IMG/VR virus record: IMGVR_UViG_3300028422_000241
Length of the DNA: 44,113 nucleotides
Source: a virus
Strand: one strand, 5' to 3'
Below, piece by piece: positions 1,406-37,652 of the stretch; the stretch's first letter is position 1; each line of letters starts with the position of its first letter. Below the pieces are notes generated by a model that had not been told where the DNA came from, did not search any database, and was given only the letters and a program-made list of their open reading frames with translations. A program made the position numbers and the translations under genes.

Positions 1406-3560
1406 CGTCATGCACCCCCTCTGCTGCGGTACTGAGGGCATCAACAAACTCCTCTGTGAGTTTATTAACCACGCCGTCAATATCCATGTCGCTGTCAATG
1501 CGGTTTGTCATGCCCGTCATATCAATTTTAACCTCTGCGGTTGTAAAGCGGTTTATGGCCTCTTTTTCTGCAATGTCACGCAGGTATGCAAGCTCCTCCG
1601 TTGTTTTCTTGCTGTTGTCGGAAAGGCTTGAGGTATCGCCGGCTATATCGTCCAGGGTGCCACCGGTACCAAGCGCACCGGTTAAGGTGTCGGCTGTGTC
1701 GGTAATGTCACTCATATTGAACATATTGCCGATTGAGGCATCAATGTTTTCACCTGCGCTGTACCCGGCGCTCCATGCATCCGAGTAAGCAATACGCTTG
1801 AGCCCCAGGCCCTCAACCGAAAGATCCAAGTTGCTTACAACGTCCTGGTAGTTTTCATTAGGCGCGTACTCTGCGACAAGCGCATCCGCTTTGCCTTTTA
1901 ACCCGTCACGCCAGCCCTGTACGGTGTCGGCCATGTTGGATCCGAAAACAAAATCAAGGGCAGAGGCGATTTTTTGAAGTATGGCAAGCACATTGTCTGC
2001 CATGCCCTGGAATAAGTAAATAATCGAGCTTACGGGGTTTGTAAACACATTCCCAATAAAGTTTGCAAGCTCAATAAATGGGTTTATCAAATAATTTATA
2101 ATGCCAAGGATCAGCTCAAGTATGCCGAGGAAAAGATCCCACACGAAAGCGCCGGCAGCTGCAAGCGCTCCCAAAATTACACCGGTTGCTGAAATGCTGG
2201 AGCCGGTGAGCTTATTAATGGCACCAATTACAGCGTAAATAATCACTATAATTGCAATGATAAGCAGTATGATCCATGTAAGCGGGCAGGCGTACAAAGC
2301 AGCGTTAAAAGCCACTTGCGCGGCCGTCATGCCGGTTGTAGCGGCCGCCTCTGCAACAGTCGCGGTACCATGTGCCACGGCGGCAATAGCCGCTATTGTC
2401 TTTAGGGCGGTGCTTATACCTTGAATGGTGTTTGATATAAGCATGGCGGTGTTGTAAGCGATCACAGCAGCCACAATGCCCCAAACAATAGGACCGAGCC
2501 AGCCCCAATTTTGTGCCATAAAATTATAGATATTGCAAACCAACCCGAACACACCGGCAAGCACTCCCGCAAGGGTGCCAACGGTACTGATGAGGCTGTC
2601 AATGGTGCTCTGTACTTTCGGATTGTTCGCAAGCTGATTGATCTTTATAAGCACCCCGTCCAACGCCTTTGTGGCCTTGTTTTGCATACTGTTCCACACC
2701 TGGCCCCACGTCATGGGCATGGCGTTAAACCTTGCCTCAACCTCATCGGCAGAATTAAACACGGCGGCCTTGATAACATTTGCTGTCAAAAGGCCATCCG
2801 CTGCCCACTCTTTCATTGTGCCTTTAACGCCCTGTACATTCCGCATATAGTCCTCAATGCTCTTGGCAAGGAGCGGGGCATTTTCAATAATAGAGCGGTA
2901 TTCATCGCCTTGTAGCCGGCCGGAGCCCATGGCTTGCGTGAGCTGATACATCGCGCTTGACATTTCCGTTGCGGATGCACCGCCAACAACAAAGTTTTTA
3001 TTTACCAATTCAGTAAAGGCAATAAGCTGATCATTATTTTTGAAAGCATCCGGCGCAACCAGCCCAAGTTTGGAAACGGTTTGCATCGTGTCAACATAGT
3101 TGGCTCTGGAGCGCTGGGCTGATCGGTATATTTTTTCCTCTAACGCATCAACGCTGCCGCCATCGTCTACAATGAGCTCCAGGCGGGCGCTGCCGCTTGT
3201 TAGCGTGTCCGAAAGGCCAACCAAGCCTTTTACTGCGTTCATACCTAAGTACGCAGCGGCTATGCCTTTTATTTTACTTAAAAGCCCGCTTGCTTTTGAG
3301 CCCCCGGTGCTTATTCGCTTATTTAGTTGATCCTGCTGCTCATTGCAACGGCGGTAATTTTCCTCCATTTCATCGAGGGCTGCATTGGCCCGGCCGATCT
3401 CTTGCCTCGCAGCAGATATGTTGCGGTTGTCGATAGCATGACCGGATGCCCTTTGCACGGCCTCAAAATTGTTGAGTACCAGGCCCATTGCACGGTTGAT
3501 CCGCTTTAATGCAGCAGACATACCATCGTTGATGATAAGTTGCGATCTTACGGCGCCCAT
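1395..3560 (-). CDS. Tail tape measure protein
   Basis: 721 aa with an N-terminal coiled-coil region and a central Gly/Ala/Ile-rich hydrophobic region. Positioned after the chaperone pair. GGAGG lies 5 nt before ATG 3560. Confidence 0.9.
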   Translation of the reverse strand: MGAVRSQLIINDGMSAALKRINRAMGLVLNNFEAVQRASGHAIDNRNISAARQEIGRANAALDEMEENYRRCNEQQDQLNKRISTGGSKASGLLSKIKGIAAAYLGMNAVKGLVGLSDTLTSGSARLELIVDDGGSVDALEEKIYRSAQRSRANYVDTMQTVSKLGLVAPDAFKNNDQLIAFTELVNKNFVVGGASATEMSSAMYQLTQAMGSGRLQGDEYRSIIENAPLLAKSIEDYMRNVQGVKGTMKEWAADGLLTANVIKAAVFNSADEVEARFNAMPMTWGQVWNSMQNKATKALDGVLIKINQLANNPKVQSTIDSLISTVGTLAGVLAGVFGLVCNIYNFMAQNWGWLGPIVWGIVAAVIAYNTAMLISNTIQGISTALKTIAAIAAVAHGTATVAEAAATTGMTAAQVAFNAALYACPLTWIILLIIAIIVIIYAVIGAINKLTGSSISATGVILGALAAAGAFVWDLFLGILELILGIINYLINPFIELANFIGNVFTNPVSSIIYLFQGMADNVLAILQKIASALDFVFGSNMADTVQGWRDGLKGKADALVAEYAPNENYQDVVSNLDLSVEGLGLKRIAYSDAWSAGYSAGENIDASIGNMFNMSDITDTADTLTGALGTGGTLDDIAGDTSSLSDNSKKTTEELAYLRDIAEKEAINRFTTAEVKIDMTGMTNRIDSDMDIDGVVNKLTEEFVDALSTAAEGVHDDEL

Positions 3561-3605
3561 AAGCACCTCCTCTCTGGAAAGGTAAAGCGGAGCAGGAGCC
3601 CCGCC

Positions 3606-4222
3606 TTATTTCCGTCTGTTTGCTTTTCTTTTTGCGGTTGCCGCCTCTTGTTTTTCCTTTTCAATTCGTACGTCAATGGCAGCCACAACAAACGCCATTT
3701 CATACGGATCAAGAGCTAAAAACTCGCGCGGTTTCCACCGGAATTTGTGGAGGGCGTAATAGGCGTAATTGGCCTCTGCATCGCCCTCCAGTATTAGTTT
3801 TTTGCCTCGTCCACCAATTCCTGTGTATCGGCAAAGCCGTTAATGTCAAGAATAGCGGAAACGTACTCATCAAACTCGCCAAAGGTGAGCATGGTGGTAA
3901 TAAGCTGCTCCGCACCCATAACGCCGTAGCTTTCCTGCAATTCAGCATCATCAAGGTTGGGGAAAACGGTGCACGCCACAGCAATTTTTGCTTGGTATGT
4001 CTGCCCGTCAAATTCCTGTGTAAACTGCCCGCGTTTTCCCTGTACGGGAATGTTGCGGGTGCAGGCCTTGCGGAGCTTTTGGTTTTCGCTTGCTGAAATG
4101 GATCTGATCTCCCACTCCATGGGTTTGCCGTCCGCACCAACAAAGCGCTGGGATGCAACGATCTTTCGGTTTTCAACCTGTTTTGCGTTCTGCGCCATAA
4201 AGGCGCTTAATGAATTTGCCAT
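3606..4222 (-). CDS. Tail assembly chaperone, predicted -1 frameshift fusion product (G/GT-like)
   Basis: Slippery heptamer A_AAA_AAC at 3797-3803 lies immediately before the zero-frame stop. The -1 frame stays open for 63 more codons (LILEGDAEANYAYYALHKFRWKPREF...KRKANRRK) to TAA at 3606. This stretch otherwise has no start-codon-initiated ORF. Confidence 0.6.
3794..4222 (-). CDS. Tail assembly chaperone (XkdN-like)
   Basis: 142 aa (MANSLSAFMAQNAKQVENRKIVASQRF...) between the tube and tape measure genes. Resembles the XkdN family. Confidence 0.85.
   Translation of the reverse strand: MANSLSAFMAQNAKQVENRKIVASQRFVGADGKPMEWEIRSISASENQKLRKACTRNIPVQGKRGQFTQEFDGQTYQAKIAVACTVFPNLDDAELQESYGVMGAEQLITTMLTFGEFDEYVSAILDINGFADTQELVDEAKN
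3797..3803 (-). promoter_or_regulatory. Programmed -1 ribosomal frameshift slippery site A_AAA_AAC
   Basis: Plus strand reads gtttttt, which is AAAAAAC on the minus strand, in the X_XXY_YYZ phase relative to the XkdN-like frame. Confidence 0.6.
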
Positions 4223-4250
4223 TGTGGTATTACCTCCTTAATTTTGTGGC

Positions 4251-8075: not shown

Positions 8076-9458
8076 TTAACCCCTGGACAAAATGCGCACA
8101 ATGGGGATGGCCTTGTGGTTAATATATGTGCGGTCGGCTGCCTCGCTTTCACCAGTATGCACAACGGTCCAGTTTGCACCGTTTTCAAGCTCTGCATCTG
8201 TCGGTGATGTGCTGGCTTGGCTTGCCTTTTCATAGGAAATACCGAACGGAGCAAAGCACTTGCGCTGTCTGATATAAAGCGTGTCCTCGCCGCCATTGGT
8301 TGCCGCATTTCTGGACATTTCATAAGGCACTTTAACACCAACATCCTCATAAGAAATGGCACCCTTGCCAAGAGCGTATGTGGTGTATTCAGTACCGGTT
8401 GCAGCAGGAGTTGTGGTCGCAAGAGTAACAACCATAGTGTCACCCTCAGTAACAGCCGCTGTGGGTTCGTCCGGGATGCCCGCATCCGTTTTCATGGTCA
8501 TTGTGATAGTGGCAGAGTTAATGGTGTAAGTATATTTTGCCTCCACACCGGTTTTGCTTTCGAGCATTGTTTTAATATTCGCAGCCTGCTGAGCTGCGGT
8601 GCCTGCAGCGCCCACTTTGATCTCATTAACTCCTGGGGTTGCATCATTAGCAACAAAAGTATATTTTGTGCCAAAGATGGTGATCTCGTCTGTTGCCACA
8701 GCAGCGGTATCAACTTTGAGCGTGTACACACCGGGTGTGGTGACAATGCCCCTTGTCGGCATTTCATCATCAACCACAATGAGCTTACCGTTCCAGGTGC
8801 CGAGTTCAAGGTTACGCTTGATACCGTCCGCATCTGTGTACTGTAAACGCTCAACAAGATTGAGGTTTTCAAGGCCGGTGGCAACATCGCTGTGCATGAA
8901 CACAAGAGCAAAGCTCTTTTTGTTTGCGCCGCAGGCTTTGTTGGTAGCGGTGTTGAGGGTTGTTGCGGTCATGGCGCCGCTTACCGTTGTGGTGTGCTTG
9001 TCAACAAACTCAAGGTTTTTCGTGCCGGTCATTGAGAAAATACCTTTGAGGACCGCGAGGATCGTTTTCTGGTCGAGGCCGTCCTTATATTCAGCAATCT
9101 GCTTTGCGATGCTGTCCATAAAATCAACCTTGCCGGTAATGTCATAGCTGAAATCTCTCTCAACCCAGCCCTTAGCGCGGCCGATAACAACAACGCCCTG
9201 CTCAAAGGTCTTTGTGCTGGTTGCTGTGATGTCGGTCTGGCCGTCATAGTTTACTGCATCGCCGTCTGCCAAGCCGCGCATAGCAATGCGGGCATAGCCG
9301 GTGCCGTTTTGGTTTGAGAAAACGTCCTTAATGTCCGGGTTGCCTGCGAGGGCAGCGGACTTTTTCAGCTCGTTCAGTTTCAAGTTGGGAACGAGGCCAA
9401 CCTTGTACTTGAAAGCCTCTGCATTGAAAGACTTTGCATCAAATTTTGTATTAGGCAT
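8076..9458 (-). CDS. Major capsid protein (HK97-fold class) with a probable inserted domain
   Basis: 460 aa, directly after the scaffold gene. Assigned by position and size. The middle third (aa ~240-357) looks like an insertion. Confidence 0.85.
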   Translation of the reverse strand: MPNTKFDAKSFNAEAFKYKVGLVPNLKLNELKKSAALAGNPDIKDVFSNQNGTGYARIAMRGLADGDAVNYDGQTDITATSTKTFEQGVVVIGRAKGWVERDFSYDITGKVDFMDSIAKQIAEYKDGLDQKTILAVLKGIFSMTGTKNLEFVDKHTTTVSGAMTATTLNTATNKACGANKKSFALVFMHSDVATGLENLNLVERLQYTDADGIKRNLELGTWNGKLIVVDDEMPTRGIVTTPGVYTLKVDTAAVATDEITIFGTKYTFVANDATPGVNEIKVGAAGTAAQQAANIKTMLESKTGVEAKYTYTINSATITMTMKTDAGIPDEPTAAVTEGDTMVVTLATTTPAATGTEYTTYALGKGAISYEDVGVKVPYEMSRNAATNGGEDTLYIRQRKCFAPFGISYEKASQASTSPTDAELENGANWTVVHTGESEAADRTYINHKAIPIVRILSRG

Positions 9459-9493: not shown

Positions 9494-10108
9494 TTATTCG
9501 AGTTTTGCATCGGGGTTTTGTTCAAGGTAGGCACAAAGCTCATCATAGCTCATGTCTTTAACTTCCTTGCCCGCAGGAGGTGGTGTCTTGCCACCAGCGG
9601 ATCCGGGAGCCATGCCCTTAAACTGCTGCCCCTTGGTATCGGTTGCGAAAAGAAACGATGTTGCCTCCGCTTTCACCATCTCGGCAAGCTCATTTGCAAG
9701 GCCTTTGACGGTACCATCATCAGCGAGCTTGGCCTCTTTGAGGAAATCAGCTAAAAGCGCCTTTACAGCGGTGTTGTTTTTAGCACCGGCGGCTGTGAGT
9801 GCTGCATCAACTGCATTGTCAAGCCTTACCTGCGCAAGCTGCGCCTCATAATTTTGTTTGTCGGTGGCGTTCTGCTGTTGGAGGGTAGTGATCTGGGTTT
9901 TAAGCGCCTCAACATCACCGGTGGAGTTTTTAAGCGCCTCCAGCTGCTGATCGCGTGCCTTGAGATCGTCCTCCGCTTTCTTTTTCGCGGTGTTCACCTG
10001 GTTAAAGTCGGTTTTTGAAACAAAGCTCTTGCCGATCTCTGCAGCAACCTTTGTGTCAATGTCCTCCGTGTAACTTTCACCAAGTATGGTTTTTAACCAT
10101 TCCAGCAT
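9494..10108 (-). CDS. Scaffolding protein (GP20-like)
   Basis: 204 aa, highly charged coiled-coil (KKKAEDDLKARDQQLEALK...), strong AAGGAGG RBS, positioned upstream of the capsid gene. Confidence 0.8.
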   Translation of the reverse strand: MLEWLKTILGESYTEDIDTKVAAEIGKSFVSKTDFNQVNTAKKKAEDDLKARDQQLEALKNSTGDVEALKTQITTLQQQNATDKQNYEAQLAQVRLDNAVDAALTAAGAKNNTAVKALLADFLKEAKLADDGTVKGLANELAEMVKAEATSFLFATDTKGQQFKGMAPGSAGGKTPPPAGKEVKDMSYDELCAYLEQNPDAKLE

Positions 10109-10217
10109 TTTTGTTTACCTCCTTAAAGTAATGTTGCTTTCCTTTTTGTCCGGCCAGTCCCGGTATTGCAACGCCCGCTCTTGTATTCCGCTGGGGCCGC
10201 GCGGTATTTTTTGTATG

Positions 10218-10248
10218 AAAAAAGCACCGTGCTTAATTGCACGATGCT
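10218..10248 (-). terminator. Rho-independent terminator after the MuF/immunity gene pair
   Basis: Minus-strand RNA forms AGCAUCGUGC-AAUUAA-GCACGGUGCU, a 10-bp stem with one G-U pair, followed by a U-run. Confidence 0.6.
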
Positions 10249-10268
10249 TTTAACAACCATGGTGGGTA

Positions 10269-10520
10269 TTAAAGCGGTATTTTTATACCGGCTTTGAGCT
10301 TATTAAGGTTTTCAAACGGCGGTATTGTGAGAAAGCCGACCGCGCCGGTTTGCTTGTTTACCGTAATGTACGGCACCCCGGCATCATCGTCCGTGCCAAA
10401 ATAAAAGGCCCAGACATCGCCAAGATCGTACTTTTCTTTTATGGGGTAGTCACCAAAGCGCTTTTTTGCCTCTTGCTGCGCTTTTTGGTATGCCTGTTCA
10501 ATATTCACTGTTTTACTCAC
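10269..10520 (-). CDS. Putative immunity protein for the MuF C-terminal toxin-like domain
   Basis: 83 aa. The GTG start overlaps the MuF stop (GTGA), indicating translational coupling. No structural role is evident. A terminator follows. Confidence 0.45.
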   Translation of the reverse strand: MSKTVNIEQAYQKAQQEAKKRFGDYPIKEKYDLGDVWAFYFGTDDDAGVPYITVNKQTGAVGFLTIPPFENLNKLKAGIKIPL

Positions 10521-12112
10521 CTACTTTTACAAGTTTCTATTATGCCCTCAGTGGGGGTTAGGTTATCAATACGCCCGTACTCCACACTTGATGGCTTTGC
10601 ATGGTCAAAATAGTACCGCACATCGCGGCTCCCGCTCTGGGGATCTATGAAAAGCACCTTGCCGTTTTCAACCTCAGCGGCAAAAACGTGGCCCATGCTG
10701 CCGGTGTCCCAGGCAACCCGGATCTCAGCCCGTGCGCCGTTACCCCAGCCAAGCATTATGCTCTCAATTTCAGAGGCCTGGTCCTTTTTGAATTTGCTTA
10801 CTGTGCGTTTCCACTCGGAGCCCTTAAATAGTTTACGCCAAGCTCCGTGCATATATGCATCGCCGTCATACGCGGGTGTTGCCTCAACATCGTAGCCCCG
10901 GCGGCGCATTTCATAGCTCGGCACACAATGCGTGCAATTTACCCGGTAAGGCCGCCCACCGTCACGGTAGTTGGGGTTTACGTTTGTTAGATCGTCCGGT
11001 ATATCATGGCTGCCCTTAATGCGTTTCCATGTGTCCAACGGGTTAATTATATCACTTTTCGGCTCCGGTGTCGAGGGCTTTATAAATTGCTTTGCCCATT
11101 CCTTGTAAGTCATATCACGAGGCACCGTGTAAACGGTTTTGCCCGTTTCCGGATCCCGTGAGGCTCTTATGCCTATGCCGTCCATGTCCTCAAAATAGGG
11201 GGCTGTGCAGCAACGGCACCAAGGGTGAAAAGGTGGGGCGGTTGCGCCCTCCTGGTATTCGGACATCTTAAATATTCGCCCGTCCATATCGGTGCAAATA
11301 GGGCAGGTGGTTGGATCCAGGGTACTTACAACACGGTACTGCTCAACACCAAGGTTGCTAAAGCAATCTTTTTGAGCAGCAGAGGAAAAATAAGCGCTCT
11401 CGGTCATAACCACGCGGCCGGCGTTATATTTTGTGGTGTTAAACTGCTTAGCAATAGCTGCAATGGCTTTGTGTGGAGCCTCGCCTGTGGCAAGCATCCG
11501 GGTAAGCTCCTGGTTGACGGTTTGCACCAGCTTGGTTTTGTCTGTCCAGCACCTTGCTGTAAATGTGCGGTTGTCAACGGTCCACGGCCGGGAAAGCACC
11601 TTTTTTACAACTTCGGTGTTTAACGCCTGCATAGTCCAGCCCACGCCGAGGCCTCGCTGGACCTCAAAAGCGGTGTGGTAATAGCTTTGTGTATAGGCGA
11701 GCTCCGAGGCGCTGCTGGTGGCTTTAATTCTTGCCTCTGTCAGCGCCTCGGCTTGCTGCCTTATTTGATATTTTAGGGTGTCCAGGCGGGAAATGTGCAC
11801 CCGTGCGGATGCGTTCTCAAGCTCCTTGATCCAGGCACCGTTTAGGGCATTTTCCTTGCCCTTTTTGATATATTCCTGCACGGTCCACTTAAACTCTTTA
11901 AGCTCGGCAGTTGTAAGCATTTTTTGCGCCTCTGCGTAGGTAATGCCGTTGTTGGTGGCAAAACGCTGATACCAGGCGCGCATTTGCGTGTCAATTTCCT
12001 TTATGGCTGCATCAAACTGCTGCTCAAGGTTTTTTACATATTCGTATGATTGATCCTTGAGGGCATCCTCCATGATTTTTAAGCGGCGTGCCCAATAATC
12101 GGCATTATTCAC
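10517..12112 (-). CDS. Head morphogenesis protein (SPP1 gp7 / Mu F family) fused to a C-terminal papain-like (Cys-His-Asp) toxin-like domain
   Basis: MuF signature VVMTESAYF...DPTTCPICTDMDG...PPFHPWCRCC spans aa ~230-305. About 160 extra aa follow, carrying NCTHC (C392), GSMGHVF (H475) and FIDPQSG (D490). Confidence 0.85.
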   Translation of the reverse strand: MNNADYWARRLKIMEDALKDQSYEYVKNLEQQFDAAIKEIDTQMRAWYQRFATNNGITYAEAQKMLTTAELKEFKWTVQEYIKKGKENALNGAWIKELENASARVHISRLDTLKYQIRQQAEALTEARIKATSSASELAYTQSYYHTAFEVQRGLGVGWTMQALNTEVVKKVLSRPWTVDNRTFTARCWTDKTKLVQTVNQELTRMLATGEAPHKAIAAIAKQFNTTKYNAGRVVMTESAYFSSAAQKDCFSNLGVEQYRVVSTLDPTTCPICTDMDGRIFKMSEYQEGATAPPFHPWCRCCTAPYFEDMDGIGIRASRDPETGKTVYTVPRDMTYKEWAKQFIKPSTPEPKSDIINPLDTWKRIKGSHDIPDDLTNVNPNYRDGGRPYRVNCTHCVPSYEMRRRGYDVEATPAYDGDAYMHGAWRKLFKGSEWKRTVSKFKKDQASEIESIMLGWGNGARAEIRVAWDTGSMGHVFAAEVENGKVLFIDPQSGSRDVRYYFDHAKPSSVEYGRIDNLTPTEGIIETCKSR

Positions 12113-13592
12113 TTACAGCACCGCCTCCCGAGCCGGCTGTGCTTTCAAACGCCGCACGGTAGGCATCGACATCCTCAACGGCCTTTTGCTTTTCCTCCTC
12201 CAGGCGTTTAAGCTCCTCCTCCGGATCGTCAACCCATGGATGCTGCCGCACAATGGTTTCATTGCTTATAATGCCTTGCGATTTTCCGCAGTTGTCTATG
12301 GCCTCGGTTTCATTAACCAGTATATCACGGTTAAATATAACCGTTACATCCTCGCCGTCAAAGTTACCCACGCCGGTGTTGGCCAGGTGAACATTGACAA
12401 ACCACAGCAGATCCTCAAAAGCGGCTTGAAATTCTGTTTCCATGCCGTTTGCATCAAGGTCAATGTCAGAATACATTGAGCGTATATTCATTTGGTTTGG
12501 TGTGCCGGTCATGCGCTCGTCTTTGGCATCGTAGCCCCGGGCGTTCTCGATTATGGCCTTTTTCAGCAGGTCAATAATGGTTTTGTAGTTTTCGGCATTT
12601 ACCTCAACGGTTAGGGTATCAACGCTGCCATCCGCGCCCTCGTAGCTGCGCACCTTAACGGCGCCGTATGTGGTGAGGTTGCGCCTAAACTCGCCCAGGT
12701 TCTCACCGTCATAGTTGTGCAGCACCAAAATGGTGTTGTGCACGTCCTCCTCCATAGCGTTTATGTAGTTGGATAGCAGCAGGTTAAGCGCATCCTGCAA
12801 GCATTTTACGCGGCAGAGCAGCGGGGTTTCACGGTGGTTGTACTTAAAGCAAATAAGAGGCAGGCGCTCCCAATTAAGCGGTATGGGCTTGCCTGTCTTT
12901 TTATCAACCACGGTAATATAGGAGCCGGAGGTTGCATCATTGTCAACAACCAGGCTGCCGTCCTCCCACACAAAGCGATCAACGCCGCCGGCATGGAAAA
13001 CCTCAACCTTGTAAACAATTTCTTCCTCGCCATCGCCCTTGTATTCGTATATGGGGAAAAAGTGCACGGCGCAGTCAAGCTCTGTGTGCGCGGTGTCTGC
13101 CCAGAACGGCAGCACCTCATACGCCGGAAACATGGCGAAAGACAGCTCACCGGCATTGTTGTAATAAGGGAAAAGCCACACCTTGCCACCGGTCAAAGCC
13201 TTTTCAGCCAATATGCGCAGGGTGCGGTGGATCTTTTTGCTGAAAACCTTTGAAAGTGCCTCGCCATATTTGGAGTTGTTCGTATCGAAAGTGACGGGCT
13301 GCCCCAGCAGGTAATTGGCCTTTTGGTCAATCATTTTTGCATACTGATTATCAACAATGCGGTTGTTTGGCAGGTTGTCAACCTCCTTGAGGCTGCCGTC
13401 CTCGCCTATGGCTTTACGCTTACGGCGCTTTATATCCTGCTCACCGTCATAATAGGCATCACCGTCAAGCTGCTGCCTGCGCTCTTTGGACGTGAGCCAG
13501 CGCTTGATCTCTTTTTCTAAAAATTCCCGGTCAGTCATACCGGGGTTTACACCTGCAGCCACTTTACCGGGGTATAAATTTAATTTTTTCAC
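12105..13592 (-). CDS. Portal protein (SPP1 gp6-like)
   Basis: GTG 13592 lies 7 nt after AAAGGAGG and immediately after the terminase stop. About 495 aa, positioned between the terminase and MuF genes. Confidence 0.9.
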   Translation of the reverse strand: MKKLNLYPGKVAAGVNPGMTDREFLEKEIKRWLTSKERRQQLDGDAYYDGEQDIKRRKRKAIGEDGSLKEVDNLPNNRIVDNQYAKMIDQKANYLLGQPVTFDTNNSKYGEALSKVFSKKIHRTLRILAEKALTGGKVWLFPYYNNAGELSFAMFPAYEVLPFWADTAHTELDCAVHFFPIYEYKGDGEEEIVYKVEVFHAGGVDRFVWEDGSLVVDNDATSGSYITVVDKKTGKPIPLNWERLPLICFKYNHRETPLLCRVKCLQDALNLLLSNYINAMEEDVHNTILVLHNYDGENLGEFRRNLTTYGAVKVRSYEGADGSVDTLTVEVNAENYKTIIDLLKKAIIENARGYDAKDERMTGTPNQMNIRSMYSDIDLDANGMETEFQAAFEDLLWFVNVHLANTGVGNFDGEDVTVIFNRDILVNETEAIDNCGKSQGIISNETIVRQHPWVDDPEEELKRLEEEKQKAVEDVDAYRAAFESTAGSGGGAVSE

Positions 13593-13605
13593 GGCTGCAC
13601 CTCCT

Positions 13606-14874
13606 TTACTCAAAACTGTAATGCGGACCGGCTGAAATTTCCTCAAGGGCGTACCGCATAGCATCCATGAGGTGGTTAAAATCATCAATGGGGCGGTTTA
13701 ACTTCCGGCCCGTTTTTGTGTCTGTGTCCCAAGTGTAATTGCTTATCTCAGTAATGAAATTAACGCACTTGGGGTGAATAAATATTTTATAGTCCTGTAT
13801 GTAGTCAATGCCGTTGTTTATGCTGTCTTTGCCTTTACGGGCTTTGCGTATGTGGGAAAGCCCCAGGGTGTAAAGCCGGTCAATGCTCTTAGGCTCGGCA
13901 CAGTCTGCCCGGATGCGCTCTTTTCCATACCCAGCATCTATAACGGCCTTGGCTATGTCCTCATTGCTCATGCCCCGTTTATAAATCTCATCAAACACCC
14001 ACATGGTTTTGTTTGCGGTGTCTACCAAGCTACAAAACAGTGCGGTGGGATCGTTGGTATATCCGAAGTCAAGCCCAAAGGCAGAACGTATGCCGGGCAT
14101 CTTGCGCACCTCGTCAATGCTGAAAAGGCGCTCCTCAAAGTTTTCATATACCAGGCCATCAACAATGCCCCACTCACCGAGCCCAGCCACGCGGTAGCGG
14201 CGTGGGTTGTTGCGCTGCATTGTGTCAAATACCTTTTTATCAGCTGCATCCAGCCACTCATTGCACATATAATTTGTGGTCATGGCCAGTATGTCCGGAT
14301 CCGGTGGGGCATCAAAAAAGCGCTTTTTAAGCCAGTGGTGCTCATTCCACGGGTTAAAGGTGAGGGTTAATTGCTTAAAAAGCCCGGCGGGCACCTCACC
14401 ACGGATGCTCTCGTCCAGGGTGTCAAAATCGGCCTCGGATGTTATCTCGTAGGCCTCCTCAATCCACAGCCAGCAAAGCACACCGACATCAACCGTGATG
14501 GAGGTTACTTTCAGCGGATCGTCAAGGCCTCTAAAATAAATCTTTTGGCCGGTTTCTATATTCTCAATCTCAAGGGGGCTTTCCTTTGCAACCCATACAC
14601 GCTGTAAACCAAGGCGGTTTATAGCCCACTTGAGCTCTGTAAAACAGCTGTCTTTTAGTGTGCGGAATGTTTTACGGATAACAAGCAAATTGGCTTTGCT
14701 GTATTTTGCTTTGCTCAAATTGCTCATGTACCACAGCGCAGCGGTTTTGCTTTTCTTAGATGCACGGCTGCCTTTGCAAACACGGTACCTGCCTTTGAAT
14801 TGCCAAAAGTCATTGTAACCGCTGCCCACAAAGTCAGACATTTTGAGCTGCAGGTTGTTAGCTGTCGAGATCAT
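13606..14874 (-). CDS. terL: Terminase large subunit (PBSX XtmB / Terminase_3-like)
   Basis: Walker A-like segment YRVCKGSRASKKSKTAA, about 420 aa, follows the small subunit gene. The start is uncertain (14874 or 14841). Confidence 0.92.
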   Translation of the reverse strand: MISTANNLQLKMSDFVGSGYNDFWQFKGRYRVCKGSRASKKSKTAALWYMSNLSKAKYSKANLLVIRKTFRTLKDSCFTELKWAINRLGLQRVWVAKESPLEIENIETGQKIYFRGLDDPLKVTSITVDVGVLCWLWIEEAYEITSEADFDTLDESIRGEVPAGLFKQLTLTFNPWNEHHWLKKRFFDAPPDPDILAMTTNYMCNEWLDAADKKVFDTMQRNNPRRYRVAGLGEWGIVDGLVYENFEERLFSIDEVRKMPGIRSAFGLDFGYTNDPTALFCSLVDTANKTMWVFDEIYKRGMSNEDIAKAVIDAGYGKERIRADCAEPKSIDRLYTLGLSHIRKARKGKDSINNGIDYIQDYKIFIHPKCVNFITEISNYTWDTDTKTGRKLNRPIDDFNHLMDAMRYALEEISAGPHYSFE

Positions 14875-15295
14875 CAATGATCACAACCTTTGTGGTACCC
14901 TCCAGGCTCACCTTATCAGTAAACAGGCCAAAGCGCTTGCCTAAAAGCTCGGCAGCCTTGAGGCGTTCCTTTTCATCGGGGGCTTTTTTCATTCGTTTAG
15001 CCTCGGAGCAGCCATCGCCGTAACCCTCAATAACAACGATCTCGGCCTCAGACTGTCCGCGCATAACCGAGGTAAGATACTCCATAACCTCCTGCGCCTC
15101 CGCAGTCTTTTGACTGCTGATCTCGGCCAGCCGTTCATCAATATAGGCCCGGACGTTAGCATTTGTTAGCAGCCTGCTGCCGTTAGCCCTTGCGGCACTT
15201 TCCTTTTTTATGTTCGGGTAGGCCGCCATATATGCCCTGGTGGCATTACAGTCAATGATGTACTCGTCTGCAAATTTCTGCTGTTTATCGGTCAT
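14858..15295 (-). CDS. terS: Terminase small subunit (Terminase_2-like)
   Basis: MTDKQQKFADEYIIDCNATRAYMAAYPNIKKESAARANGSRLLTNANV is a typical N-terminal HTH of this family. ATG 15295 follows GAGGTG. Confidence 0.85.
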   Translation of the reverse strand: MTDKQQKFADEYIIDCNATRAYMAAYPNIKKESAARANGSRLLTNANVRAYIDERLAEISSQKTAEAQEVMEYLTSVMRGQSEAEIVVIEGYGDGCSEAKRMKKAPDEKERLKAAELLGKRFGLFTDKVSLEGTTKVVIIDDLDS

Positions 15296-29998: not shown

Positions 29999-30661
29999 AT
30001 GGCGGTTAAAGTTTGCCCTGTGTGTGGAGCACAAACAAAGTGTAAAATCAAGGCTGCAAACGGGTATATTTGCGCCTCGTGTACCTGGCTAAGCCCTAAT
30101 TACTCGGCCGAAACAATAGAAGTGTTGGCGGGCTACCAACGGGAACAGAGCCAACGCAGAGCTTTGTTTTCAAAAACAAGGGTAATAAAAAGCCTTTTGA
30201 GTGATACTATATGTGTTGACGATAACAACAAACTTTTCTATGTCGGAAAAGAAAAAGAGGAGCGCCCCATCATTTACCGGTTTAATGAGGTGCAGGGCTG
30301 CGAGATGGAAAGCCAAACAAAAACGGTTACAAAGAAAAAGGGCGGGCTCGGCCGGGCTGTTGTAGGTGGCGCTCTTTTCGGTGGCGTGGGTGCCGTTGTC
30401 GGTGCATCCACGGCCAAGGAGGTTACTACCCAGCAAAATGGTCCGAGCCACTTAAACGTGCAGCTCAAAACTTATGCCGGAAATAAGATCCTCACACTTT
30501 ACTCCCCGCCCATGGGTGCGGATCAGTTTTTCAATATCTGCTCAAACGAAACGGCCCCGGATGGCGTTGATGAAATACTGAAATACAAAAAGCTGCTTGA
30601 TGAGGGCATAATTACACCGGAGCAGTTTGAGGCTAAAAAACGGGATCTGCTAAACCTATGA
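29999..30661 (+). CDS. DUF4428 zinc-ribbon / glycine-zipper / SHOCT-domain protein
   Basis: N-terminal CPVCG...CASC, central GGLGRAVVGGALFGGVGAVVGAS, and a C-terminal SHOCT-like segment LKYKKLLDEGIITPEQFEAKKRDLL. Confidence 0.65.
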   Translation: MAVKVCPVCGAQTKCKIKAANGYICASCTWLSPNYSAETIEVLAGYQREQSQRRALFSKTRVIKSLLSDTICVDDNNKLFYVGKEKEERPIIYRFNEVQGCEMESQTKTVTKKKGGLGRAVVGGALFGGVGAVVGASTAKEVTTQQNGPSHLNVQLKTYAGNKILTLYSPPMGADQFFNICSNETAPDGVDEILKYKKLLDEGIITPEQFEAKKRDLLNL

Positions 30662-32253
30662 GCAAGAGCAAATTAGCCGTTGTGTATGCCCGGTACTCAA
30701 GCCACCGGCAGGGCGAGCAGAGCATTGAGGGGCAGCTCGCTGAGGCTTATAAGTACGCCGAGGCACACGGCATGAAAATAATACACGAGTATGTTGACCG
30801 GGCCATGACTGGCCGGAATGATAACCGGGATCAATTCCAGGAAATGCTCAAGGACACGGCCAAGAAACAATTTGATGCCGTCATACTGTGGAAAATAGAT
30901 CGTTTTGGCCGTAACCGTGAGGAGATCGCTTTCAACAAATACCGCTGCAAAAAGAACGGTGTCAAGGTTGTATATGTTGCCGAGAGCATCCCGGACAGCC
31001 CGGAGGGCGTTATCCTGGAAAGCGTGCTTGAGGGCATGGCCGAGTATTACAGCCTGCAGCTGTCCCAGAACATACGCCGAGGCAACCGGGCAAGTGCAGA
31101 GAAGTGCCAGAGCACCGGAGGCAACCGGCCGCTGGGATATAAAACGGATCCGGAAACAAAGCGCTTTGTTATTGATCCGGACACGGCGCCCACGGTCCGC
31201 ATGATCTTTGAGTGGTACGCCCAGGGCAAAACTATTGCTGAGATTATTACCGAGCTTAACAACATGGGGCTCCGTACCCTGCGCGGCGGTAAATTCACAA
31301 AGAACAGCCTGCACTCATTACTGAAAAATGAGAAGTATATCGGCATTTATGCTTACAAGGATGAAATACGGATTGAGGGAGGAGTCCCTGCCATAATTGA
31401 TGCTGAAACATTCGCAAAGGTGCAAAGTATGCTGAAAGTAAATAAAAGGGCCCCAGCGCATACCTGGAGCCGTGCAGACTATTTACTCACTGATAAACTT
31501 TTCTGTGGCCACTGCGGCTCAAGAATGGTGGGCGAAAGCGGAACGAGTAAAACCGGCGCAAAGCATAATTATTATATCTGCACCAAGCGCAAGCGTGAGC
31601 GCACCTGCGATAAAAAGGCGATCCGGCAGGAAGTTATTGAGCAAAGTGTGCTGGAAAAGGTAACGGGGATATTGCACGATGATGATCTGCTTAACTTCAT
31701 TGCCGATGGGGTATATGCCTATTACCAGGAGCAGAACGCCGAAAACGATTTTGAGGCGAGCCTTAAAAAGCAGCTTGCTGAGATTGACAAGGCCACGGCC
31801 AATATTGTAAAAGCAATCGAGGCCGGCATATTCAACGATGCCACAAAAAAGCGCATGGATGAGCTGGATGCGCAGCGTGAAGAAATTAACGCCGAGCTTT
31901 CACATTACGAGCTTGTACGGTCCTGGCAGCTCACCCGGGATCACATTCTGTTTTTCTTGTATCAATTCCGCGACATGGATATTACCAACCAGGACTGCCA
32001 AAAGCGGCTTGTTGATACTTTTGTTAATGCCGTATTTGTGTATGACGATGGTCGACCCCCGCTGCTCACGTTAAACTATTCCGGCGATAGTCGCACGGTA
32101 TCATTGGACGATATAACCGGGTTAAATGCCGAGGGGGCAGAGTTCGTATACCGTGCGGAATGTTCCACCATAACGCACACATACGAACCCCTAAAAATAG
32201 TGGTTTATCGTAATGTGTTTGCAATTCAACTTGAAAAAACCGAGAGGGTGTAA
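30658..32253 (+). CDS. int: Large serine recombinase (integrase)
   Basis: N-terminal resolvase domain AVVYARYSSHRQ containing the catalytic Ser. Recombinase and zinc-ribbon (CGHCG...YYIC) regions follow. 531 aa. Confidence 0.93.
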   Translation: MSKSKLAVVYARYSSHRQGEQSIEGQLAEAYKYAEAHGMKIIHEYVDRAMTGRNDNRDQFQEMLKDTAKKQFDAVILWKIDRFGRNREEIAFNKYRCKKNGVKVVYVAESIPDSPEGVILESVLEGMAEYYSLQLSQNIRRGNRASAEKCQSTGGNRPLGYKTDPETKRFVIDPDTAPTVRMIFEWYAQGKTIAEIITELNNMGLRTLRGGKFTKNSLHSLLKNEKYIGIYAYKDEIRIEGGVPAIIDAETFAKVQSMLKVNKRAPAHTWSRADYLLTDKLFCGHCGSRMVGESGTSKTGAKHNYYICTKRKRERTCDKKAIRQEVIEQSVLEKVTGILHDDDLLNFIADGVYAYYQEQNAENDFEASLKKQLAEIDKATANIVKAIEAGIFNDATKKRMDELDAQREEINAELSHYELVRSWQLTRDHILFFLYQFRDMDITNQDCQKRLVDTFVNAVFVYDDGRPPLLTLNYSGDSRTVSLDDITGLNAEGAEFVYRAECSTITHTYEPLKIVVYRNVFAIQLEKTERV

Positions 32254-35815: not shown

Positions 35816-36184
35816 TTATACCCCCTCATCAATGCCAAAGAGGATAAAGTCCACAGCCTCCATGGTGCTGCCTAAAGCCTCTTTGAGCCTTTCGTTTTCT
35901 GCCTCCAGCGCAGCAATGCGCTCACCCTCTGTGGGTGGTTTCTGCGGTGTCGGAGCCTGCCACGATGCTGCGGTGTCATACCACGCATTAAAATCTGCAG
36001 CAATTTCCTGCTCTGTGGCTGAGGTAAGCATATAAACCTCATCGGCCTCATAGCTCACCGCGCCCGTTTCGCTGTCAACAGTTTCGGTTATGTTTTTGCG
36101 CATCCAGAGATCGGCATCCCCGGAGGGCAGGCTCATATACTTAATACTGTCCGGGCGTTGTGTGTAAAACGCTTTTGTGATCAT
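35816..36184 (-). CDS. Hypothetical acidic protein (XkdW-position)
   Basis: 122 aa. AAGGAG lies 9 nt before ATG 36184. The start overlaps the RT 3' end by 44 nt. Confidence 0.5.
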   Translation of the reverse strand: MITKAFYTQRPDSIKYMSLPSGDADLWMRKNITETVDSETGAVSYEADEVYMLTSATEQEIAADFNAWYDTAASWQAPTPQKPPTEGERIAALEAENERLKEALGSTMEAVDFILFGIDEGV

Positions 36185-37289
36185 TGTTTGCCACTCCTTT
36201 TTTAGCCTCTCGGCTTATTGTTTTTCTTGCAGCCTTAAACACCTCTTTAAGGTGTAAAGCAATAGCAACCCTGTGAGAATTGGTGTACTTAAAATAGCCC
36301 CTGTATGAAACGATCCGGCGGGCATTTTGCAGGAATATGCAAAGCCCTGCCTGCATACGCCTCCAGGCTCTTATTAGCGCCCTGCGAGCGCGTATAAAGG
36401 TGCGTGCCCGTATTGTTGTGCACTCTTTGCCCACAACAAAGCCCATCATATCCGGCGGCTCCTTGGCCGTCTGTTTGATATGGTGGGCCGGTTTAATGGT
36501 AAGGCCTAACTGCTTGAAAAGGTACTCCTCAAACAGCTTAGAGGCCATTTTAAGATCGCGCTTTGATGGTCCGGTTATATACACATCATCCATAAACATA
36601 AGTATGTGGGCTATAAGGTTTTGCCGCTTGCCCCGGCGCTCCTTGTACAGCTGCTCTGAGGCATAATGGTAAGCGTATGACATTACATAGTTGCAAAGCC
36701 ACTGGCTTAAAAAGCTGCCTATTGAGAGGCCGTGTTCATAGGATCCGACAAGAGCAAGCACAAACCATATAAGCACCGGGTTTTTGTGTATATCACGCTC
36801 CAGCAGTTTGCGGATCGTGCGGCTGCTTATGCTTTCAAAGCAATGCCGCACGTCCATTTTGTCATAATACTTGGTGCCCCTGGGATCCGTCCGGATCCAC
36901 TTCTCAAGGGCTTTTTTACCGTAAATTTGGCCGCGCCCCGGTACGCTTGCGCACTGAAACACGCCAACCTTTGCCTTTAACATTGGCATGAGCGCATACA
37001 CCGCAACATAATTCATACACTGCTGCATAGCACTTTCAATGCCGAGCCTGCGGAGTTTTCCGCTGCTTTTGTCTATCCGGTCACGATAGTGTATAGGCGG
37101 CAGATCAAGATCACGGGCTTTTATACGCTCCGTGATCTCAGCCGCTATGCCGTGGGCTCCTCCGTACCTCGCGGAAAGCCTTTGAAAGCCAGGCCTGCGC
37201 CGCTTTTTAGGATCTGAAATACAGAGGTTTACCCACGGCTCTATTGTGTCGGGATCTGTTATATCAACATTCTTACAGTATGTTTTCAC
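36141..37289 (-). CDS. DGR reverse transcriptase
   Basis: Motifs SVPGRGQIYG, KMDVRHCFESIS, GLSIGSFLSQ (the DGR-type IGxxxSQ) and MFMDDVYI. GTG 37289 lies 6 nt after AGGAGG. Directly follows the TR. Confidence 0.92.
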   Translation of the reverse strand: MKTYCKNVDITDPDTIEPWVNLCISDPKKRRRPGFQRLSARYGGAHGIAAEITERIKARDLDLPPIHYRDRIDKSSGKLRRLGIESAMQQCMNYVAVYALMPMLKAKVGVFQCASVPGRGQIYGKKALEKWIRTDPRGTKYYDKMDVRHCFESISSRTIRKLLERDIHKNPVLIWFVLALVGSYEHGLSIGSFLSQWLCNYVMSYAYHYASEQLYKERRGKRQNLIAHILMFMDDVYITGPSKRDLKMASKLFEEYLFKQLGLTIKPAHHIKQTAKEPPDMMGFVVGKECTTIRARTFIRARRALIRAWRRMQAGLCIFLQNARRIVSYRGYFKYTNSHRVAIALHLKEVFKAARKTISREAKKGVANNDHKSVLHTTPGQY

Positions 37290-37460
37290 AAAACCCCTCC
37301 TAAATATCGTCTGGTTGAGCACAAGGGCTTTCGGTTTGCTCTACTAACCCCAGGAGCAGCCTTGTTATGCTGCCCCTCCTTGCGGTGCCGGTTCAAGCTC
37401 AATTTTTGGGTTATTAGCCCAAGGAATGTACTGCGTAATAAATTAAATATCTTACCAGAT

Positions 37461-37565
37461 GCGCGGGCGCCGATGTTCCAGTTAGCATTGGCGAGGCCAT
37501 TGTTCAAATTAGCACAAGCCAGGCCGCTGTTGCCGGCATTGTTCAGATTACCGAAAGCCTGCCAC
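37461..37565 (-). repeat. DGR template repeat (TR)
   Basis: 105 bp, non-coding. In the VR frame it reads WQAFGNLNNAGNSGLACANLNNGLANANWNIGARA, with 10 AAY codons. Confidence 0.92.
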
Positions 37566-37608
37566 AGCATGGACAAAGGGCACGAGGGTCCACAGCACAT
37601 CCCTGTAT

Positions 37609-37652
37609 GAGGGGCTACCGCCCCTCTATACGGCGGCCTACGCCGCCGTATA
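37609..37652 (-). promoter_or_regulatory. Two abutting GC-rich hairpins with 4-nt loops just 3' of the VR
   Basis: 37627-37652: TATACGGCGGC-GUAG-GCCGCCGTATA (11-bp stem, with the target stop codon TAG in the loop). 37609-37626: GAGGGGC-GGUA-GCCCCTC (7-bp stem). No U-run follows either hairpin. Confidence 0.7.

Follow-up and report, generated by a model that had tools for sequence, protein, structure and literature searches.

A MuF minor head protein gene with a Tox-PL1 domain and a predicted small-protein immunity partner in a probably temperate phage

RESULTS

A two-domain MuF protein behind the portal gene

IMG/VR record IMGVR_UViG_3300028422_000241 is an entire contig of 44,113 bp from a contractile-tailed phage; this whole stretch of DNA is referred to below as the window. 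On its minus strand, the head module runs in the order terminase, SPP1 portal, MuF, a small open reading frame (ORF), scaffold and major capsid (Table 1). Our subject is the pair in the middle of this series, namely the MuF gene, which begins with GTG, overlaps the portal gene by 8 nucleotides (nt) and encodes 531 amino acids (aa), and the 83-aa ORF behind it. Genes for MuF polymorphic toxins are placed immediately 3′ of the portal gene in the packaging/head module, and this is the position found here.

The initial annotation, made from the sequence alone, had described an SPP1 gp7/MuF core ending near PPFHPWCRCC, followed by a linker of ~60 aa and an extra C-terminal domain of ~160 aa. Profile searches bear out this architecture. 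PF04233 (Phage_Mu_F) matches aa 197-303 (11204-11524) with 53 bits (cutoff 29.6), TIGR01641 (phageSPP1_gp7) scores 75 bits (cutoff 39.65), and the core terminates at PPFHPWCRCC. MuF polymorphic toxins (Zhang 2012; Jamet 2017) are marked by a MuF domain of this sort at the N-terminus, be it PF04233, PF06152 or a relative. The ORF also matches PHROG 115 (minor head protein) with E = 5e-122. By analogy, the conserved carrier region that includes this core presumably directs the protein to capsid and portal.

Table 1. Positions of the toxin and predicted immunity genes, their sub-features and the neighbouring head genes in the window
Feature	Position	Strand	Evidence or remark
MuF polymorphic toxin gene, 531 aa + stop	10517-12112	(-)	ORF list, Pfam, PHROG 115, TIGR01641; directly after portal
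Conserved MuF carrier region, aa 1-345	11078-12112	(-)	73-100% identity per 30-aa block to relatives with other toxin domains
Tox-PL1 / Gln_amidase papain-fold toxin domain, aa 363-531	10520-11026	(-)	PF15644, AlphaFold2, Foldseek, OspI profile match
Asn392-Cys393, NC motif with predicted nucleophile	10934-10939	(-)	Invariant, aligned to OspI Cys62
His475, predicted general base	10688-10690	(-)	Invariant, aligned to OspI His145
Asp490-Pro-Gln492, DxQ motif	10637-10645	(-)	Asp and Gln invariant; Asp aligned to OspI Asp160
Predicted cognate immunity gene, 83 aa	10269-10520	(-)	Family linkage to Tox-PL1; AlphaFold2
sigma70/sigmaA-like promoter site, carrier/toxin junction	11046-11074	(-)	TCGACA, 17-nt spacer, TG-n-TATAAT; 11/12 matches, extended -10
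Intrinsic terminator after immunity gene	10216-10251	(-)	Fold energy, stem conservation
Terminase large subunit	13606-14877	(-)	Head module
SPP1-type portal	12105-13688	(-)	Head module
Scaffold	9494-10108	(-)	Head module
Major capsid	8076-9458	(-)	Head module

The C-terminal domain belongs to Tox-PL1

Within the C-terminal domain, aa 392-494 match PF15644 ('Gln_amidase, papain fold toxin 1', that is, Tox-PL1) over model positions 2-113/114. The score is 48.8 bits against a gathering cutoff of 24.1 (E = 1.8e-12), far above chance level. The initial annotation had likened the region to papain-fold toxin and deamidase domains and had named Tox-PL1 beforehand as one candidate family. It had also proposed an ordered Cys-His-Asp triad. 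His475 and Asp490 (codon 10643-10645) were placed correctly; the codon assigned to the cysteine, 10937-10939, encodes Asn392, and the cysteine is residue 393 (10934-10936). The residues N392-C393, H475, D490 and Q492 do not vary across two homologue alignments (23 and 38 sequences), so the triad is conserved in the family. They make up NC-H-DxQ, the published Tox-PL1 signature (PMC3482391).

The window's Tox-PL1 subfamily also strongly conserves the motif YEMRRRGYDV. A profile of the homologues matches Shigella OspI (PDB 3B21) with E = 0.002 and, after the tag offset, C393, H475 and D490 fall on OspI C62, H145 and D160, which we take to be the catalytic triad of that enzyme as given by Sanada et al. 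(2012). A profile is required to reach OspI, because a single-sequence phmmer search of the C-terminal domain against PDB sequences yielded only a chance match, to an IraD/gp25-like protein (E = 0.09). OspI is the characterised glutamine deamidase of PF15644 (PMC10318531).

An AlphaFold2 model of aa 360-531, with a predicted local distance difference test (pLDDT) score of 94.9, has the papain-like alpha+beta fold of Tox-PL1 when compared by Foldseek, with modest scores. The solved structures closest to it belong to papain-fold effectors and toxins, among them OspI, AvrPphB, a Josephin-like clippase and the Cpe1-Cpi1 pair, at template modelling (TM) scores of about 0.42-0.49; the match to OspI 4IP3 has a probability of 0.99 and a TM score of 0.47. 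The cassette has no compositional anomaly, and the window contains no second copy of either the toxin or the immunity gene.

A small ORF family follows Tox-PL1 genes

As the initial annotation had it, the 83-aa ORF starts with a GTG set within the TGA stop codon of the MuF gene (GTGA, a 4-nt overlap). The source gene call begins four codons later, at GTG 10508, which gives 79 aa, and a Shine-Dalgarno-like sequence, AGGTGA, lies across the MuF stop codon (10518-10523), 8 nt before that GTG. We favour the 83-aa reading because family members mostly start with the same 4-nt overlap, which is the commonest start among them. Both starts may be used, by translational coupling on the late transcript and by separate initiation on an internal one.

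A direct database search with the small ORF returned few homologues. Two relatives, at 72-78% identity, each lie directly after a Tox-PL1-type ORF, and one of the two has a scaffold gene next. To widen the sample, 140 loci of the Tox-PL1 subfamily were gathered by means of the YEMRRRGY motif (the best 80 of 313 confirmed viral contigs, plus 60 genomes). Behind nearly all Tox-PL1 genes in these loci there is an ORF of 67-100 aa, often with a 4-nt overlap. When jackhmmer was started from the window ORF, 93 of 4,295 small six-frame ORFs (loci L001-L145) were matched; 89 of them are the ORF directly 3′ of a Tox-PL1 gene, and 2 more are near-identical relatives of the window ORF.

The relationship can be recovered from other starting points. 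With the window and its closest relative left out of the profile, the window ORF was the sole match among 384 window ORFs (60.6 bits, E = 2e-18), and it was matched again by a profile made from the partners of short non-MuF Tox-PL1 proteins alone (48.4 bits, E = 1.6e-14). In a reverse search that began with the immunity profile, all three members found directly follow a Tox-PL1 gene. The family comprises 805 representative clusters (E <= 1e-3) and is placed almost solely directly 3′ of Tox-PL1 genes, whose carriers are MuF, type VII secretion system (T7SS)-like or DUF7211 proteins. Pairwise identities of toxin domain and partner ORF co-vary, with a Mantel r of 0.80 that no permutation reached (0/2000) and that shared ancestry inflates; the partner diverges faster than the toxin domain. 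A family that tracks Tox-PL1 genes and co-varies with them is in keeping with the MuF toxin-plus-immunity layout put forward in the initial annotation. At 83 aa, the window ORF is also within the limit of 150 aa for the small ORF that follows a MuF polymorphic toxin gene (Zhang 2012; Jamet 2017).

Searches of Pfam, NCBIfam, PHROGs and PADLOC with the small ORF gave nothing above threshold, and Imm35 and Imm-SUKH, families known to be associated with Tox-PL1, gave no profile match to it. PepSY (PF03413) is matched below threshold by 2 of 30 family members (15.4 bits against a cutoff of 24). In the AlphaFold2 model of the window protein (pLDDT 90.5), a helix packs on a four-stranded sheet and is followed by a further helix and strand. 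This model aligns with the YpeB PepSY structure 5BOI at a TM score of 0.48 (E = 2.2). A Foldseek search of BFVD gave one borderline match, to an uncharacterised phage protein (TM 0.77, E = 1e-3). The family is uncatalogued and appears to be undescribed.

Some members depart from the single-domain form. Tandem repeats of the immunity-like family occur within one protein in P0092, P0094, P0095 and P0133 (two stretches each) and in P0200 (three stretches), and P0107 is a family member fused to a ParB_N domain.

Toxin domain and downstream ORF are exchanged together

We assembled 55 viral loci with genes for MuF N-domain relatives. Those 81-82% identical to the window protein (L146, L148 and L149) retain both Tox-PL1 and a homologue of the 83-aa ORF. 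Other N-domains, 74-84% identical, are joined to Ntox50 (115 bits), to a deaminase of the BURPS668_1122 type (62 bits), to a region with a weak DUF4258-like match or to no recognised domain. At ~44-63% identity, the C-termini include an ADP-ribosyltransferase (47.5 bits), a weak RelA/SpoT-like match and sequences with an HExxH motif. Every alternative C-terminus is accompanied by a different small ORF. Identity to the window protein is 60-100% up to ~aa 330 and 10-30% thereafter, which puts the breakpoint at ~aa 340-360. The initial annotation had pointed to homologous phages as the place to look for domain swapping, and in them the C-terminal domain is indeed swapped together with the downstream ORF. 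Nor is the domain a structural element conserved across MuF proteins, as close relatives carry others in its place.

A conserved linker of ~60 aa (MuF aa 331-395) lies between the MuF core and the variable toxin in L150, L151, L152, L154 and L158, despite their different toxin domains. Its consensus, about ...YGSGTVDKxRKxGYNxSxDxxQFExYK..., is pre-toxin-domain-like and includes a perfect promoter consensus.

The Tox-PL1 module is also found on other carriers. It is fused to Phage_Mu_F, Phage_min_cap2, VG15 and portal-MuF proteins, and it occurs on a 276-aa protein whose locus also contains an EssC-like FtsK/SpoIIIE ATPase gene and several small, WXG100-sized ORFs, a gene content that points to a T7SS. 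The partner at this T7SS-like locus is an 87-aa ORF; because a BLASTP comparison of it with the 83-aa window ORF was not significant, homology between the two rests on profiles. The swapping of domain together with downstream ORF, and the sharing of the module across carriers, are therefore the behaviour of a polymorphic-toxin cassette, and the swapping argues against a head-maturation role for the Tox-PL1 domain.

Further arrangements were seen among these loci. In P0029, P0037 and P0039, Tox-PL1 is fused to an N-terminal DUF7211 region with the motif H-[HY]-G-[IV]-K-G-[MQ]-x-W-G, and in L203/L204 (1-5400) such DUF7211-Tox-PL1 fusions adjoin several DUF7211 (PF23847) genes. The DUF7211 region may be an unrecognised export or trafficking domain. 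In L201, L202 and L205 (~3300-4240), a Tox-PL1 gene of 138-216 aa stands on its own, followed by an ORF of the immunity family. The pair adjoins a ParB_N-DUF4417 gene, a short way 5′ of terminase. The MuF gene of L205 bears another toxin domain, CdiA_C; one phage can therefore hold two toxin cassettes at different places.

A promoter-like site at the carrier/toxin junction and a terminator behind the small ORF

A promoter scan located a sigma70/sigmaA-like site in MuF codons 347-356, at the junction between carrier and toxin (Table 1). Both hexamers are unchanged in relatives that are ~79% identical at the DNA level; the spacer differs. Across 35 distinct MuF genes related to that of the window, 19 of the 22 strong matches (>=10/12) fall in a 180-nt junction window, against 2.3 expected under uniform spread. 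Genes with other toxin domains have the perfect consensus, TTGACA-17-TATAAT, at the junction.

To gauge this enrichment, non-redundant sets were compared with shuffles that permute synonymous codons (500 each). With test windows picked after the data had been seen and lineages that are not fully independent, junction sites were present in 7 of 35 lineages of Tox-PL1 carriers (shuffles, 1.08 ± 0.85) and in 10 of 21 lineages of MuF relatives with other toxins (3.13 ± 1.15); in neither set did any shuffle reach the observed number (0/500 each). In the remainder of the genes, strong sites numbered 3 observed to 3.13 expected and 2 observed to 3.16 expected, respectively. The sites, which occur in L010, L013, L035, L037, L048, L113, L147, L150-L163, L185 and L192, are consensus matches rather than measured promoters. 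The peptides encoded there vary by lineage, e.g. STPEPKSDII, VDKSRKIGYN, LPTGSAGGTI and VANAENDGII. A second, weaker cluster of sites closely precedes the immunity gene. It is seen in 4 lineages, as against an expected 1.52, and 21/500 shuffles do as well.

From the window's site, transcription is predicted to start at ~11039. An internal transcript would yield mainly the immunity protein, because there is no in-frame ATG or GTG from that point to Cys393. The sole in-frame candidate start is a TTG (Leu359), at the predicted transcription start itself.

The intrinsic terminator reported in the initial annotation is present as a 13-bp hairpin (10220-10251) followed by a U-run. Its Delta-G is -24.6 kcal/mol (z = -6.3), and 0/200 shuffles fold as well. 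In the related contigs L149, L004 and L005, the stem is unchanged and the loop varies. Terminator-like hairpins lie behind the small ORF at 27 of 56 distinct related loci, compared to 0 of 168 control windows, which were taken inside genes and are thus coding sequence. Judging by the sequence, junction site and terminator may let a prophage transcribe the immunity gene alone.

Other features of the phage

Structural genes on the contig include those for sheath, tape measure and baseplate J; replication is represented by DNA polymerase A, VapE, SNF2 and DUF2800, and the endolysin is of the amidase-SPOR type. A large serine recombinase is encoded at 30658-32253, and the phage is therefore probably temperate, as had been supposed in the initial annotation. 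The tail module is divided between the contig ends (1-3566 and 41720-44113): tape measure and sheath are encoded close to the first, baseplate J close to the second. The contig probably represents a complete genome, either circular or circularly permuted.

A diversity-generating retroelement occupies 36141-39410 on the minus strand. It consists of an RVT_1 reverse transcriptase (36141-37322), a template repeat (37455-37565) and a variable repeat (37675-37785), the latter at the C-terminal end of a 590-aa ORF (37638-39410) whose product is probably either a tail fibre or a receptor-binding protein. Over their 111 nt the two repeats are 83% identical, and by eye the mismatches lie nearly all at template adenines, mostly in AAC codons.

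DISCUSSION

Comparison with known systems

The combination of a MuF-Tox-PL1 gene and a small immunity gene has been described already, and the window is a further instance of it. Zhang, de Souza, Anantharaman, Iyer and Aravind (2012) reported MuF-Tox-PL1 fusions in prophage packaging modules (PMC3482391). The window protein resembles these in joining MuF to a C-terminal Tox-PL1 with NC-H-DxQ, and in its setting, a prophage packaging module beside terminase, portal and capsid genes. Their toxin table gives no immunity family for Tox-PL1, with Imm35 and SUKH linked to the domain elsewhere (PMC3482391). Here, by contrast, the domain is consistently partnered by a small-protein family that is in no catalogue, and the exchange of cassettes speaks for a toxin role. 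The MuF toxin family was defined by Jamet et al. (2017), who proposed that its members are delivered together with DNA; Tox-PL1 is listed neither in their text nor in the accessible supplements.

A 2024 study demonstrated toxicity and immunity for the MuF toxin Bxa and drew attention to Bacteroidales MuF toxins of the 'glutamine deaminase' kind, accompanied by ORFs predicted to confer immunity (PMC11699363). Like the window gene, these combine MuF with a domain predicted to be of the glutamine-deamidase type, and a small ORF adjoins them. They were found by homology to Bxa, and their small ORF is predicted by AlphaFold 3 to cover the active site (PMC11699363). In the Bacteroidales-derived loci of our own collection (L130, L131 and L133), the downstream ORF gave no match to the small-ORF family, or is absent. 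For Apk2 and Bxa, experiments have shown toxicity and its neutralisation by immunity genes next to them (PMC11699363); carrier, head-module position and adjacency of immunity genes are the same as here. The two have other chemistries and two immunity functions each, one enzymatic and one binding: Apk2 is a (p)ppApp synthetase with Aph1 and an immunity protein, and Bxa is an ADP-ribosyltransferase with BAH and Bsi. In the window, there is one small non-enzymatic ORF.

Among enzymes of known structure, Shigella OspI (PDB 3B21, 4IP3) belongs to the same Pfam family, has a similar fold and aligns residue for residue at the Cys-His-Asp triad. It differs in being secreted as a type III effector, with human UBC13 as its target and no immunity partner, and is ~16% identical to the window domain; the YEMRRRGYDV motif reads differently in OspI. 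Cpe1-Cpi1 is a pair of papain-like cysteine protease toxin and immunity protein (PMC12136450; PDB 9L5U). As is proposed for the window, an antibacterial papain-fold toxin has a small cognate immunity protein, and there is a weak fold match, with a predicted structure on the window side. Cpe1 falls in a C39/ComA-like clade rather than PF15644, is delivered by type VI secretion or contact-dependent inhibition systems in Gram-negative bacteria, and cleaves GyrB and ParE.

For the junction site, the closest parallel is with Salmonella rhs genes, whose internal promoters have been demonstrated with reporter fusions and transcriptome data (Starsta et al. 2020, PMC7043789). The rhs promoter and the promoter-like site in the window both lie inside the toxin gene, just 5′ of the variable C-terminal domain; that of Rhs transcribes the toxin C-terminus and immunity gene independently of the full-length gene. 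The present case, unlike Rhs, consists of sequence prediction and comparative enrichment, and the carrier is a MuF protein in a phage. No paper linking MuF toxins with internal promoters was found in the literature searched, and the junction site appears to be undescribed.

A probable MuF-class toxin-immunity cassette

The explanation we favour, with a probability of roughly 0.8, is that ORF 10517-12112 and the 83-aa ORF form a MuF-class toxin-immunity cassette of a temperate, contractile-tailed phage of ~44 kb. The ~345 N-terminal residues, as an SPP1-gp7/MuF minor head protein, would place a few copies at the portal inside the capsid, by analogy with SPP1 gp7, of which each capsid has 1-2 copies complexed with the portal (PMC5576092). 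A paper on gp44 of phage 80-alpha (PMC7290940) has no usable statement on MuF delivery. The Tox-PL1 domain is predicted to be an OspI-like papain-fold enzyme, with Cys393 as nucleophile, His475 as base and Asp490 as orienting residue, and would deamidate or cleave a cytoplasmic protein target. The product of the 83-aa gene, a small alpha/beta protein that coupled translation would co-produce with the toxin in late expression, is expected to bind and neutralise the enzyme. Most likely, the toxin part would leave the capsid with the DNA and enter the next cell. Toxicity, neutralisation and capsid delivery are proposed by analogy with Apk2 and Bxa (PMC11699363) and with SPP1 gp7 (PMC5576092).

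Several points weigh against a cassette of this kind. The similarity of the toxin model to solved structures is modest (TM about 0.45-0.49), and a bacterial substrate is conjecture, because OspI, the only characterised member of PF15644 named in the literature consulted, acts on a eukaryotic target. A search of the 83-aa protein against Imm families had been suggested in the initial annotation, and it failed to place the family, with 0 of 30 members matching any Pfam Imm family at E <= 0.1. A Foldseek search of PDB with the small-ORF model gave no significant match; its top rows are monellin/cystatin-like, NTF2-like and PepSY folds, all with E > 0.8. We do not claim a relationship to cystatins or to PepSY, the fold matches being non-significant. 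The literature searched contains no experiment on any MuF-Tox-PL1 protein. Finally, Zhang et al. (2012) suggested a capsid-based delivery route, yet favoured a processing role for Tox-PL1 in MuF fusions (PMC3482391).

That last proposal would make Tox-PL1 a morphogenetic or self-releasing peptidase, acting on head proteins, itself or cargo during assembly or ejection, with the small ORF as a temporary inhibitor or chaperone. Besides its advocacy by Zhang et al. (PMC3482391), it could appeal to PHROG 595, labelled 'head maturation protease', which matches aa 5-440, and to the lack of a separate prohead protease gene between the portal and major capsid genes. Set against this, MuF carriers 74-84% identical to that of the window swap the domain for a ribonuclease-type Ntox50, a deaminase or others; since near-identical carriers replace it in this way, the capsid does not need Tox-PL1. 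The same domain and small-ORF family are also found in non-phage carriers and as stand-alone phage genes outside the head module. As a matter of general SPP1 knowledge, moreover, heads of this type that use a scaffold protein require no protease. We consider a peptidase of this kind improbable, and reject the narrower assignment as a prohead maturation protease implied by the PHROG 595 label, given the unrelated toxin domains that stand in its place in those carriers. Were the 83-aa ORF instead an unrelated small head-module protein with no immunity function, its failure to match a curated Imm family, with a sub-threshold PepSY match as the sole hint, would be as expected. However, it is linked to Tox-PL1 whichever of the two a search starts from, in carriers and contexts that are unrelated to one another; it co-varies with the toxin, and it gives way to another ORF whenever the toxin domain is exchanged. 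These data make a chance neighbour very hard to credit.

Another possibility is that Tox-PL1 is not a killing toxin but an injected effector that helps the phage, a few molecules of it arriving with the DNA. It would modify a host protein, such as a defence or growth-control factor, and so bias the lysis-lysogeny decision or blunt defence, and the small protein would silence the enzyme in the producing cell. Jamet et al. (2017) proposed such a function for MuF domains of low toxicity, such as peptidases. OspI is a specific, non-lethal modifier of one target, and only 1-2 copies of gp7 are reported per SPP1 capsid, both of which sit well with this idea. On the other hand, the module is common to T7SS-like and other polymorphic-toxin carriers used between bacteria, Tox-PL1 is interchangeable with bona fide toxin domains, and there is no match to anti-defence or defence families. 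We therefore regard an effector of this sort as rather unlikely. It differs from the toxin-immunity cassette in ecological role, and the molecular mechanism is the same.

Implications

MuF toxins are abundant in prophages of gut Firmicutes, and experimental work has covered only two of their chemistries, those of Apk2 and Bxa. A member with Tox-PL1 and one clear-cut partner gene offers a tractable case in which to approach the bacterial target of an OspI-like enzyme, the injection of MuF cargo with DNA, and the protection of lysogens.

The junction site leads us to a more tentative suggestion, for which we would claim somewhat less than even odds. A conserved sigmaA-type promoter may lie within MuF toxin genes where carrier and toxin meet, often with a terminator behind the immunity gene, such that toxin C-terminus and immunity gene constitute an autonomous, moron-like unit inside the late structural operon. 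If so, a repressed prophage would make the immunity protein and shield its lysogen from toxin injected by sibling phages. A free toxin C-terminus might arise too, from a non-AUG start, as in Rhs, and the pair would then be a toxin-antitoxin-like addiction module. On this view, the 805 representative clusters of the partner protein would make up a new family of small proteins that inhibit papain-fold deamidases or proteases. The pattern of junction promoter and terminator would thus provide a concrete answer to how lysogens are protected with the late genes off, and would extend the internal-promoter principle of Rhs to phage-borne polymorphic toxins.

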